DNA of 23,053 bases from positions 1 through 23,053 of IMG/VR virus record IMGVR_UViG_2537562020_000011. The stretch is one strand, 5' to 3'. The position numbers were made by a program. Shown one piece after another: positions 15,001-17,305 of the stretch; positions within the stretch are counted from its first letter, which is position 1, and each line of letters begins with the position of its first letter. The stretch is from a virus. Lineage: Duplodnaviria > Heunggongvirae > Uroviricota > Caudoviricetes.

Positions 15001-17305
15001 TCAAAAAATGTCTTGATTTTTTACGCATAAACTGTTTCAATCCAGCTACGCTTCGCAAAGCTATACCGCGAGGCGAATAGCAGACATGGACACCTGAAAG
15101 AACCCGCTTTATGCGGGTTTTTTTGTGCCCGAAAAGCGGTACAGGACGTTAAATGCGCTGGTGGTTGCGAATGCCGGTCTTTCAGCTTGCTGGCTTTTTC
15201 GACAAGAGGTATTGGTATGTCACGTTAACCGGGAAAGGGAAAAAGGCATGCTAAAACAGCAGGATATGACCGAAACCGCCAGAGTGGTGTTTAATGAATT
15301 AAGCATCACCGAACCGGCGACCGTCGGGGAAATTGCGCAGAATACTTACCTTTCACGCGAACGCTGCCAGTTAATACTGACTCAGCTTGTTATGGCGGGT
15401 CTGGCAGATTATCAGTTCGGTTGTTACAGACGCCTTCCGCAGTGAAGGCTTTTTAATTTGTGGTAATGGGCGGCTGGGGGGTGTTAGCGGCACCTGCCAG
15501 CCATCTGCTCATGCGTTGGGGTCACAAGCAAACCTCAGGCCCATCTGCTTTGCGCAAAAGCGGTATGAGCCTATCAGAGAAGTGCTTATTGATCTATGAT
15601 TAATACTGTAAAAATATCCAGTTGTGAGTTAATCAACGCTGATTGCCTGGAGTTTATCCAGACCTTACCGGAAAATTCTGTCGATCTGATAGTCACAGAC
15701 CCGCCATACTTTAAAGTGAAGCCCGAGGGCTGGGATAACCAGTGGGAGGGCGACGATGATTACCTGAAATGGCTGGACCAGTGTCTGGCGCAGTTCTGGC
15801 GGGTACTGAAGCCTACCGGAAGTCTTTACCTGTTCTGTGGTCATCGCCTGGCATCTGACACCGAAATCATGATGCGTGAGCGCTTTAATGTGCTGAACCA
15901 CATTATCTGGGCGAAGCCGTCCGGACGCTGGAACGGGTGCAATAAGGAAAGTCTGCGGGCGTATTTTCCGGCAACAGAGCGCATTCTGTTTGCAGAACAT
16001 TATCAGGGACCGTATCGCCCGAAAGATGATGGCTATGTGGCACAGGGGCGCGAGCTAAAACAGCACGTCATGGCCCCGCTGATTTCTTACTTTCGTGATG
16101 CGCGTAAATCACTGGGAATAACGTCAAAACAGATAGCGGAAGCCACCGGAAAGAAAAACATGGCTTCGCACTGGTTTGGTACCAGTCAGTGGCAGTTACC
16201 GAACGAGGGTGATTACAACAAATTGCAGGCGTTGTTTGCGCGTGTTGCGGCAGAAAAACATCAGCGCGGGGAACTGGAAAAACCACACCACCAGCTGGTC
16301 AGCACATACAGTGAGCTGAACCGGCAGTATACGGAACTGCTGAGTGAATATAAAAATTTGCGGCGGTATTTCGGTGTGACGGCGCAGGTTCCGTACACCG
16401 ATGTCTGGACGCATAAACCGGTGCAGTACTATCCAGGGAAACATCCGTGCGAAAAACCGGCAGAAATGCTGCAGCAGATAATCAACGCGAGCAGTCGTCC
16501 GGGAGACCTGGTTGCAGATTTTTTTATGGGTTCAGGTTCAACGGTAAAAGCGGCGATGGCACTGGGGCGTTGTGCGATTGGTGTTGAGCTGGAGACAGGA
16601 CGTTTTGAACAGACAGTCAGGGAAGTTCAGGATTTAATCGTTTGAAACGGATGAGATTGCAGAATTAATTACGCACCATTATTATTCTGCTCCCGGCCCT
16701 TTAGCTCAGTGGTGAGAGCGAGCGACTCATAATCGCCAGGTCGCTGGTTCAAATCCAGCAAGGGCCACCATCACATACCGCCATTAGCTCATCGACAGAG
16801 AGTGCCAGCTTTCGAAACTGGCTGTGTGGGGCTCGGGTCCCCGATGGCAATCCATTATCTGCATTATGCGTTGTTAGCTCAGCCGGACAGAGCAATTGCC
16901 TTCTAAGCAATCGGTCACTGGTTCGAATCCAGTACAACGCGCCACGCTTATTTTTCCAGGCTCGCTTTGGCGGGCCTTTTTCATATCCGCGCCCGTTATG
17001 AAGCGCCACCGCGTTCTGCTAATGCTGAAGCCCTTCGTCAGCTGACTGATGTTGCAGATACTGATGATACTGTGAATGTGCTGTGTCTGTGTCTGGATAT
17101 CGCTGACCAGGACGGTATCGGTCAGGAAGAAGAAGCGCAACTGAAGAAAATTGCGCAGGCGCTGCAGTTGCCGCTGGAGCAGTACCTGTGAAAAGTGCGC
17201 GCCTTGTGCTGGCTGTCATCCTGTTGTTTCTGGTAGTGATGGTGGATTTCACCGGACGACTGATGTCAGTGCTGGCAGATGGTGTGCTGGTGGCGATGGC
17301 GCTGA

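Follow-up and report, generated by a model that had tools for sequence, protein, structure and literature searches.

A methyltransferase and tRNA cargo block with a probable structured leader RNA, beside deleted lysis genes in a defective lambdoid prophage of Escherichia coli

DNA methyltransferases of the M.EcoGII type belong to a family that has already been characterised and is sold as a reagent, and a stretch of cargo between Q and the lysis genes is a known and ordinary feature of many lambda-like E. coli prophages. M.EcoGII itself is a prophage-borne protein of 349 aa that is silent in the lysogen, modifies adenine non-specifically, and is toxic when expressed; M.EcoGI is identical to it at 333 of 349 residues, two methyltransferases of E. 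coli O104:H4 C227-11 are reported to be adenine non-specific, and a close M.EcoGII homologue is encoded by phage 1720a-02 (PMC5778455). The locus described here lies in the window (the whole 23,053-nt stretch of DNA analysed, positions 1 to 23,053 of the IMG/VR virus record IMGVR_UViG_2537562020_000011), and its cargo block is 88.6% identical to that of phage 1720a-02. The original prediction likened the block to the cargo that Shiga-toxin-type lambdoid phages carry near Q, and this likeness is evident at the DNA level, as phiP27 and many Stx2 phages (e.g., Stx2a_WGPS2) share 88-90% identity with the window over positions 15113-16993. The Stx phages, phiP27, and the 933W-type cluster display the same order of small ORF, DNA methylase, ileZ, argN, and argO past Q and tR', and the matching features in Stx-phage records are annotated as DNA methylase, ileZ, argN, and argO. 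Differences from the Stx phages include the absence of stx, whose slot holds a truncated TerB-family gene and a DUF3927 gene, a Q of the DUF1133 type with homology from the terminator (15113) onwards, a degenerate argN, and the deletion of the lysis genes.

The nearest genomes to the window are those of E. coli strain E8 and four sister genomes (99.9% identity), and the enterotoxigenic E. coli (ETEC) strain H10407 is 99.5% identical as far as window position 17485; among complete E. coli genomes, coverage of the whole window reaches 71-78% at best. The prophage occupies a site between potC and potB, the same potC-adjoining integration site as the H10407 prophage (NC_017633, 1.29-1.32 Mb), and also encodes an integrase, a CI-like repressor, Cro, O/P-like replication genes, RusA, and Q. 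Its decay is apparent from at least three additional internal deletions and an IS66 insertion. The interval very probably comes from a defective lambdoid prophage adjoining potC in an ETEC-type E. coli and forms the segment of its late operon nearest the promoter, with the usual cargo and with lysis genes that were deleted. The normal order of such an operon would be Q, pR'/tR', a 65-aa winged-helix protein, a structured leader RNA, an M.EcoGII-type methyltransferase, ileZ-argN-argO, and a moron slot, and would continue with two holins, an endolysin, the terminase, and the head genes. The cargo block in the window is a stranded remnant of this arrangement, in a prophage no longer able to lyse the cell or package DNA.

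The Q-like gene and tR'-like terminator at the head of this operon, both read earlier from the raw sequence, were confirmed. The Q-type late antiterminator gene (14474-15016, plus strand, as are all features below) encodes 180 aa matching Pfam DUF1133 over its full length (E 5.9e-103), Phage_antitermQ at 28.4 bits (cut-off 26), and PHROG 753 ("anti-termination protein Q-like"), and an identical protein is named "DUF1133 family protein" by PGAP. By position, a short pR'-to-tR' leader extends over about 15017-15125 and ends in the terminator (15096-15125), a hairpin of -21.6 kcal/mol (z -5.57, with none of 200 shuffles equally stable) followed by U7. Of 25 related loci, nearly all have a GC hairpin and U-run at the equivalent position, and several of these place it ~30-40 nt past a lambda-type pR' (TAAATT..AACGATGGG). 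Such a promoter can be made out in certain relatives, though not with the Q type of the window; a consensus promoter scan of 14300-17700 returned no plus-strand promoter, and pR'/qut was likewise not located there. Between the terminator and the small ORF lies a conserved non-coding block, CTTGCTG-N13-CAGAGTTATCTGTATGTCAC (15186-15224), that is near-invariant across genera with fixed spacing amid unconserved flanking sequence. The sigma-70 scan did not call this block as a promoter; it appears promoter-like or operator-like, and it could permit Q-independent transcription of the ORF downstream.

That ORF (ORF65, 15248-15445) encodes a stand-alone protein of 65 aa that had been described as DNA-binding-like, a description that agrees with its predicted winged-helix fold: the AlphaFold2 model (pLDDT 91.3) has the order H1-H2-H3-beta-hairpin and is structurally closest to winged-helix domains of the MarR/OhrR/IclR type (TM about 0.8). 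The protein matches PHROG 331 (E 6e-37), is named "TrmB family transcriptional regulator" by NCBI, and has 331 homologues in the Enterobacterales; its sole Pfam match, TrmB, scores 18.4 bits, under the cut-off of 25.6. A 106-aa reading of the ORF from a GTG at 15125, despite a higher PHROG 331 score, was rejected because all genera share the first methionine of the shorter ORF (invariant in an alignment of 25 sequences) and the region upstream contains indels and the terminator.

The genomic company kept by ORF65 is close to constant. Of 34 species-level loci, 32 have a methyltransferase gene directly 3' of ORF65, which is also present at 271 of the 288 loci that combine the leader (see below) with the methyltransferase; the other 17 have an unrelated ~80-aa ORF in its place or continue directly from tR'. 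In other genera, holin or endolysin genes follow the ORF65-methyltransferase pair within about 150-400 bp. It is possible, though on the doubtful side, that ORF65 is a dedicated transcriptional or translational regulator that keeps the toxic methyltransferase off until the right moment, in which case it might bind the block at 15186-15224 or the structured leader. Consistent with such a role are the modelled fold, the position directly upstream of the methyltransferase, the conserved non-coding blocks on both sides of ORF65, the toxicity of M.EcoGII on expression (PMC5778455), and the finding that, barring deletion derivatives and contig-end loci, ORF65 was never seen with a lysis-type leader lacking the methyltransferase. 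In location it also recalls the controller (C) proteins of restriction-modification systems, small DNA-binding-type proteins encoded just upstream of the modification gene. However, ORF65 is predicted to be a winged helix and not an XRE-type HTH of about 80 aa as in C proteins, there is no restriction gene to control, and a structured leader of 150 nt separates the two genes. The 17 loci that do without ORF65 and the sub-threshold TrmB match also speak against a regulator, and a lone winged helix of 65 aa might just as well have a structural DNA-binding function or one related to m6A.

The spacer of ~150 nt between ORF65 and the methyltransferase gene is near-constant in length (134-153 nt in 32 loci) and contains a conserved structured RNA that covariation supports. 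A weak, terminator-like hairpin with a short U-run (P0, 15432-15454, -8.9 kcal/mol), picked up by the terminator scan, spans the stop codon of ORF65 and has undergone compensatory changes in relatives (e.g., CCUCC/GGAGG versus CUGCC/GGCAG). The conserved 5' leader of the methyltransferase gene follows (15456-15595) and consists of domain 1, a long irregular hairpin P1-P2-P3 (15456-15533), and domain 2, P4-P5, with an invariant UGAUC immediately 5' of the AUG. In an alignment of 27 sequences, 92% of the cells at paired positions can pair, versus 31-42% when the partners are slid; in the covariance-model test the values are 82% and 27-46%. Compensatory changes across lineages occur in P1, P3, and P4, both sides having changed in 12 of 23 pairs, and none of 500 shuffles reaches the observed values. 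The variable P3 hairpin is misplaced by the MAFFT alignment, in which it is 59% paired; in the covariance-model alignment, where bulges and a recurring A-C mismatch limit the gain, the figure is 68%.

The covariance model scores 73.1 bits at the window copy and matches 60 loci exactly once each, among them phage lambda, where the match lies upstream of S. The lambda copy (45,015-45,092, between tR' and S) has the same P1-P2-P3 hairpin architecture and scores 58.4 bits with this model. The gene downstream of the element is a holin gene in lambda and about 28 further phage contigs but the methyltransferase gene in the window, and domain 2 differs between the two contexts. The notion that the leader is specific to the ORF65-methyltransferase pair was rejected by pattern scans of viral contigs, since copies occur without ORF65 and before holin genes without a methyltransferase. 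Rfam (4227 models) yielded nothing over 15446-15595 even at E up to 10, and nothing over the leader copies of lambda and two other loci (L238 and L193) at E up to 1; a literature search found no usable description of a late-leader RNA element. The element, which is also found ahead of the holin gene of lambda and of further lambdoid phages, has no Rfam family and may be new.

We tentatively read the leader as an uncatalogued cis-acting RNA of lambdoid late operons, 80-140 nt long, and ORF65 as the dedicated partner of the methyltransferase, a combined reading to which we would give slightly less than even weight. The RNA would sit before the first late gene, whether that is a holin gene (lambda and others) or an M.EcoGII-type methyltransferase gene (as here), and may gate the expression of that gene. 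It may act as a switch with two alternative pairings of a conserved GGUCAC similar to the 3' end of 16S rRNA, one with GUGA (P1) and the other with the invariant UGAUC before the AUG, or it may be the RNase III processing site of the late leader. Processing of lambda's late leader by RNase III is reportedly the subject of Daniels et al. 1988 (Virology 167:568, cited in PMC7547250). Conservation of 15456-15595 merely as DNA (e.g., a recombination-prone module boundary or a promoter) with no functional RNA is unlikely. The spacer does lie at a mosaic boundary of late-operon modules, its sequence conservation is high (so that many pairs never vary), and a U-rich run follows P3 in lambda, where P3 could be a second terminator. 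Against this stand the both-sided compensatory changes, which the shuffles do not reproduce, and the fact that each locus has a single copy, which invariably reads in the sense direction and lies after tR' and ahead of the first late gene; G-U pairs are also frequent, and the structure is therefore one of the sense strand only.

The gene downstream of the leader (15596-16645) encodes an orphan beta-class N6-adenine DNA methyltransferase of the M.EcoGII/M.EcoGI family. The 349-aa protein matches Pfam N6_N4_Mtase (E 6.5e-45) over residues 29-340, apart from about 100 aa inserted in the middle, and its motifs occur in the beta-class order, with DPPY at residues 35-38 and FFMGSGST at residues 309-316; its best PADLOC match is MTase_II. 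Profile and PADLOC searches of the window ORFs revealed no restriction partner and no defence family near the methyltransferase, and thus both parts of the earlier assignment, a beta-class amino-methyltransferase and the lack of a restriction enzyme, were upheld. The closest described enzymes are M.EcoGII and M.EcoGI from prophages of E. coli O104:H4 C227-11 (Murray et al. 2018, PMC5778455), which share with it the length of 349 aa, the order of DPPY, target-recognition domain, and FxGxG, a lambdoid prophage setting, and the lack of a restriction partner. Identity to M.EcoGII is about 90% (316 of 350 positions, with two gap positions) in a collinear alignment with no change of domains, the M.EcoGII reference having been machine-read from the supplement of PMC11551740 with evident reading errors. 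Most of the about 34 substitutions affect the target-recognition region in the middle of the protein, and many lie between residues 140 and 260. A further difference is that the prophage here is defective. A search of viral contigs with the methyltransferase alignment added no diversity, since the relatives it returned were all at least 90% identical.

Because the enzyme belongs to the characterised M.EcoGII family, a REBASE-style prediction of its specificity would most likely give "any adenine"; because most of the substitutions lie in the target-recognition region, we only infer that the window allele is non-specific. It is quite improbable that this orphan is instead a Type II enzyme resembling Dam or CcrM, which would recognise a defined sequence and serve the host epigenetically, and not a non-specific anti-restriction enzyme. 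Kinship with RsrI, CcrM, and MboIIA, all related beta-class N6_N4 methyltransferases, could favor sequence specificity, as could the roughly 10% of residues that differ from M.EcoGII, and an intact gene inside a decayed prophage could hint at selection. But M.EcoGI is identical to M.EcoGII at 333/349 residues and two of the C227-11 methyltransferases are reported to be adenine non-specific (PMC5778455), the window protein retains the domains of M.EcoGII in collinear order, and its site downstream of tR' speaks against constitutive use by the host.

The methyltransferase gene is followed by the tRNA cluster, which had been proposed as an ileZ-argN-argO-type trio. In Stx-type phages this cluster has Ile(CAU, lysidine type) first, then Arg(UCG) and Arg(UCU). 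The first and third members are sound: an ileZ-type tRNA with anticodon CAT (16695-16770; ARAGORN, Rfam 72.5 bits), called tRNA-Ile by PGAP and ileZ in homologous Stx-phage records, and an argO-type tRNA-Arg with anticodon UCU (16868-16944; ARAGORN, Rfam 70.1 bits). The middle one, an argN-type tRNA-Arg(UCG) at 16778-16854, is degenerate, with 23.7 bits in Rfam against a threshold of 29. ARAGORN makes no call for it in the window or in E8 but calls tRNA-Arg(UCG) in the H10407 copy, from which the window differs by three substitutions that include a D-loop G to A. The literature searched on ileZ, argN, and argO held nothing usable. A terminator-like hairpin (16958-16977, -14.6 kcal/mol), also picked up by the terminator scan, closes the cluster and leads into the moron slot, which begins with a remnant of a TerB-family gene (16988-17191) in the place of stx in Stx phages. 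The remnant covers profile positions 73-143 only of PHROG 632 ("tellurite resistance"), is labeled "missing N-terminus" by PGAP, and is intact at 141 aa in strain 700481. It is followed by a gene for a DUF3927 small membrane protein (17188-17340; Pfam E 1e-14; PHROG 1470, "TciB-like", E 1.7e-23). Neither stxA nor stxB occurs after the tRNAs, and the interval from argO to the start of the holin gene holds only these two genes.

Beyond the slot, the prophage carries a deletion scar (17429-17620) in which holin codons 1-19 (17429-17485) are fused in frame to the C-terminal 44 codons of gpW, the head-tail joining protein. The junction, mapped base by base, lies at 17485|17486 and is identical in strain E8; the fusion protein matches Pfam gpW over residues 14-62, and tblastn with the holin found residues 1-19 alone. 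Identity to H10407 ends at window position 17485 (18086 in the H10407 locus, L002) and resumes at L002 23163, from which it follows that 5,076 bp are absent from the window. This deletion, common to the window and the five E8-type genomes, removed the lysis genes and also the terminase. Recombination between two 6-bp ACGGTA repeats was rejected as its route, both copies having been retained; the exact overlap at the junction is 1 nt (A), or GGTA versus GGCA with one mismatch. H10407 and strain 700481 show what precedes and follows in undeleted relatives: Q, ORF65, the methyltransferase, the tRNAs, TerB, and DUF3927, then a putative holin, a holin, and an M15 peptidase (the endolysin), and past these a lambda-type terminase, gpW, and a full portal gene in H10407 and a P27-type terminase in strain 700481, both strains keeping terminase and gpW. 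Relative to these two, the window and E8 lineage lack the 5,076 bp and have other deletions.

The original prediction held that no toxin or lysis genes follow the cargo, and profile searches bear this out: none of the plausible ORFs in the window encodes a restriction enzyme, holin, endolysin, spanin, or toxin, so that the suggested search for holin and endolysin confirmed their absence apart from holin codons 1-19. Its further claim that the cargo replaces the lysis cassette is refuted by those nineteen codons and by relatives that keep both the block and the lysis genes. An insertion of cargo in place of the cassette, in a lineage naturally without holin and endolysin there, fits the lack of any lysis gene after the tRNAs within the window but deserves hardly any credence, given the surviving holin codons fused to gpW, the same block beside intact lysis genes in H10407 and strain 700481, a missing segment that includes the terminase and the gpW N-terminus (a pattern of deletion, not substitution), and the other deletions and IS66 insertion in the prophage.

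In the lysogen, all genes past tR' would be silent and would be transcribed only with Q made after induction, although it is position only that suggests such late, Q-dependent expression. After induction, the methyltransferase would modify adenines of the replicating phage DNA in any sequence context, which would shield progeny DNA from many restriction systems, and the tRNAs would decode rare codons for the late genes.

The finding itself matters little, as this is a moron and late-leader region of textbook type in a decaying prophage with near-identical public copies. It does indicate that an absent lysis cassette beside intact cargo should be presumed a deletion scar until relatives have been checked. 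The strain may still make a non-specific adenine methyltransferase on SOS induction while unable to lyse, and methyltransferase expression without lysis could matter for studies of methylomes and restriction in ETEC lineages. Even lambda has the structured leader ahead of S; this element can be tested cheaply and may represent a new RNA family that controls the first late gene.

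The lysis cassette of this 23-kb lambdoid prophage, whose integration site adjoins potC, has been deleted and not replaced by cargo. Profile scans of every plausible ORF in the window (Pfam, PHROGs, PADLOC, and NCBIfam) detect no holin, endolysin, spanin, or restriction enzyme, and no toxin following the Q-proximal cargo block, in agreement with the original prediction that neither toxin nor lysis genes come after the block and that its methyltransferase lacks a restriction partner. The accompanying proposal that the cargo took the place of the lysis genes is ruled out by the mapped deletion junction and by intact relatives. 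In the prophage of ETEC H10407, which is 99.5% identical to the window as far as position 17485, the order is Q, ORF65 (a 65-aa winged-helix ORF), methyltransferase, tRNAs, a TerB remnant, and DUF3927, then a putative holin, a second holin, and an M15 endolysin, followed by several small ORFs, the terminase small and large subunits, gpW, and portal. Strain 700481 carries the block as in the window and after it the two holins and the M15 endolysin of H10407, although its terminase after the lysis genes is P27-type, unlike that of H10407. Identity between the window and H10407 stops at 17485 (18086 in the H10407 locus, L002) and restarts at L002 23163, indicating that 5,076 bp are absent from the window. 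At the junction (17485/17486), holin codons 1-19 are joined in frame to the final 44 codons of gpW with minimal microhomology (1 nt exact, or GGTA versus GGCA), creating a chimeric ORF (17429-17620) that matches Pfam gpW from residue 14 and is annotated by PGAP as 'phage head-tail joining protein'. Those 19 holin residues are the sole match in the window when all H10407 lysis and terminase proteins are searched by tblastn. The junction is identical in the prophage of E. coli strain E8 (99.87% identity across 12671-22542), and E8 and four sister ETEC genomes show 99.9% identity across 14400-17700.

Other decay scars are a truncated portal gene (481 aa) joined to an FII remnant (19028/19029), an 824-aa ORF combining the gpZ N-terminus with a tape-measure protein (19330-21804), and an L'-J' fusion (22158-22613); an IS66-family element that is not in E8 starts at 22628 (accessory gene 22628-23053, ending with the window). 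The large exonuclease gene (1419-3888, minus strand) is split into ORFs of 313 and 499 aa, versus a single 823-aa ORF in E8, and is probably a pseudogene. The remaining gene content includes integrase and excisionase, dicB, a CI-like S24 repressor and Cro, O-like and DnaC-like replication genes, DUF968, and RusA. The DicF sRNA (4524-4575, minus strand), the sok antisense RNA, and a hok-family toxin gene (hok/sok; 11430-11605 and 11543-11755) are standard features of Qin/Rac-type prophages. A Doc/Fic 'death on curing' toxin gene (12160-12654; TIGR01550, 128 bits) lies just behind a small ORF (PHROG 2208, within 11923-12654) that may be its antitoxin, and the segment containing them (~11843-12671) is matched in neither the E8 nor the H10407 prophage.

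The block itself is known cargo. Window positions 15113-16993 share 88-90% identity with phiP27, phage 1720a-02, and dozens of Stx2 phages, where the matching features are a hypothetical protein, a DNA methylase, ileZ, argN, and argO, bearing out the predicted resemblance to Q-proximal cargo of Stx phages. The slot after argO holds stx in Stx phages, whereas the window has a truncated TerB-family gene (16988-17191) and a DUF3927/TciB-like gene encoding a small membrane protein. The N-terminal half of the TerB-family gene is lost in both the window and H10407, versus an intact 141-aa gene in strain 700481 (L342 5721-6146). Upstream, the Q-type antiterminator gene (14474-15016) is confirmed by a full-length DUF1133 match, a Q-like PHROGs assignment, and a Phage_antitermQ match that narrowly passes the Pfam threshold, and the expected tR'-like terminator is a highly stable hairpin followed by U7 (15096-15125). 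Homology to Stx phages begins at this terminator, consistent with Q travelling together with its cognate promoter as a module that is exchanged separately. Between tR' and ORF65, a non-coding block (CTTGCTG-N13-CAGAGTTATCTGTATGTCAC; 15186-15224) is nearly invariant across many genera; a sigma-70 scan calls no promoter there, and it could be a promoter or operator. The predicted trio of tRNAs holds for two members, tRNA(CAT) (16695-16770; tRNA-Ile according to PGAP) and tRNA(UCU) (16868-16944), both unambiguous. The middle, argN-type element (16778-16854) is degenerate, scoring 23.7 bits against an Rfam threshold of 29 with no ARAGORN call in the window; the H10407 copy, three substitutions apart (including a D-loop G to A), is called tRNA-Arg(UCG). 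The argN-type tRNA of this lineage is probably a pseudogene.

The methyltransferase (15596-16645, 349 aa) carries DPPY close to the N-terminus and FxGxG towards the C-terminus, the order that defines the predicted beta class. It is identical at 316/350 positions to M.EcoGII, as compared with a machine-read reference sequence containing a few obvious errors (PMC11551740 supplement). M.EcoGII is a prophage-encoded, 349-aa beta-class enzyme that methylates adenine whatever the sequence context, and is silent in its native strain and harmful if expressed; phage 1720a-02 carries a close homologue (PMC5778455). Judged by this identity and these published properties, the orphan enzyme belongs to the characterised M.EcoGII family, and its predicted specificity is most likely "any A".

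The anticipated small wHTH ORF, ORF65 (15248-15445), matches Pfam TrmB below threshold, and a confident AlphaFold2 model (25 homologues; pLDDT 91.3) predicts a bare winged helix, closest to MarR/OhrR/IclR DNA-binding domains. With one genome per species, ORF65 homologues occur in 34 loci (e.g., Escherichia, Salmonella, Klebsiella, Citrobacter, Enterobacter, Proteus, Providencia, Mixta, and Plesiomonas), 32 of which have an M.EcoGII-like gene next; of the two exceptions, one is a deletion derivative and the other lies at a contig end. Among viral contigs, ORF65 is present in 271 of 288 loci with the leader (the conserved spacer before the methyltransferase) and the methyltransferase, and the other 17 have an unrelated ~80-aa ORF or a terminator directly upstream. 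The linkage is strong without being obligatory. The ~80-aa ORF (MDKSQLIMEAKFLLDTYLELND...) occupies ORF65's place in L220, L204, L134, and L175. As for ORF65 controlling the methyltransferase, the C-proteins of restriction-modification systems are XRE-type, unlike ORF65, and the window lacks a restriction gene. ORF65 may plausibly act in regulation or as an accessory protein, though this is less likely than not. The region appears deletion-prone across E. coli prophages: one encodes an ORF65-DUF3927 fusion protein (P0098) resulting from a deletion inside the block, and in others (L182, L019) the methyltransferase is gone, though ORF65 and part of the leader remain.

From ORF65 to the methyltransferase ATG, the spacer length is constant (134-153 nt), and the spacer shows high conservation between genera. 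It comprises a long, irregular hairpin, P1-P2-P3 (core 15456-15533), a second domain, P4-P5, and an invariant UGAUC directly before the AUG. In a 27-sequence MAFFT alignment, 92% of cells pair (versus 31-42% with partners slid) and ten pairs are changed on both sides. Pattern scans of viral contigs also find the leader upstream of the methyltransferase without ORF65, and, in ~28 contigs lacking the methyltransferase, just past a tR'-like terminator and before a lambda-S-like holin, endolysin, and Rz. Phage lambda has a copy ~90 nt upstream of S (45,015-45,092; L341 1216-1293), with further copies at L238 2192-2268 and L193 1477-1553. A covariance model derived from 54 representatives gives exactly one match per locus in 60 loci, all on the sense strand (window 73.1 bits, lambda 58.4 bits). 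In the model-fitted alignment, which leans towards the structure used for fitting, 12 of 23 pairs are changed on both sides, 82% of cells pair (27-46% when slid; P1 and P2 97%), and 0/500 shuffles attain these values. P3, variable both in sequence and in length, is poorly aligned. G-U pairs are frequent, which makes the structure strand-specific, and no Rfam family matches any copy examined. The leader is a conserved RNA structure with covariation support, of which each lambdoid phage has a single copy; it lies after tR' and before the first late gene, which is the methyltransferase in the window and holin gene S in lambda. RNase III processing of the lambda late leader has been reported (Daniels et al. 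1988), and the leader is a candidate for that processing site. It may also be a translational switch, as the minimum-energy fold of the window copy pairs a conserved GGUCA with the UGAUC that precedes the start codon.

The ORF65-leader-methyltransferase unit is conserved at the start of late operons with differing Q types. By analogy with lambda and Stx phages and with the M.EcoGII work, transcription from pR' would halt at tR' in the lysogen, and after induction Q would carry RNA polymerase past tR' and the weaker hairpins at 15432-15449, 16958-16977, and 17350-17405. The methyltransferase would then hypermethylate phage DNA as a broad anti-restriction measure, and the tRNAs would aid translation of late genes. 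In the defective prophage of the window, the block has no lytic cycle left to serve. Nothing about the finding is out of the ordinary or unexplained: a known cargo block sits in a prophage scarred by deletion. Only the structured late-leader RNA may be new, and it merits study in its own right.
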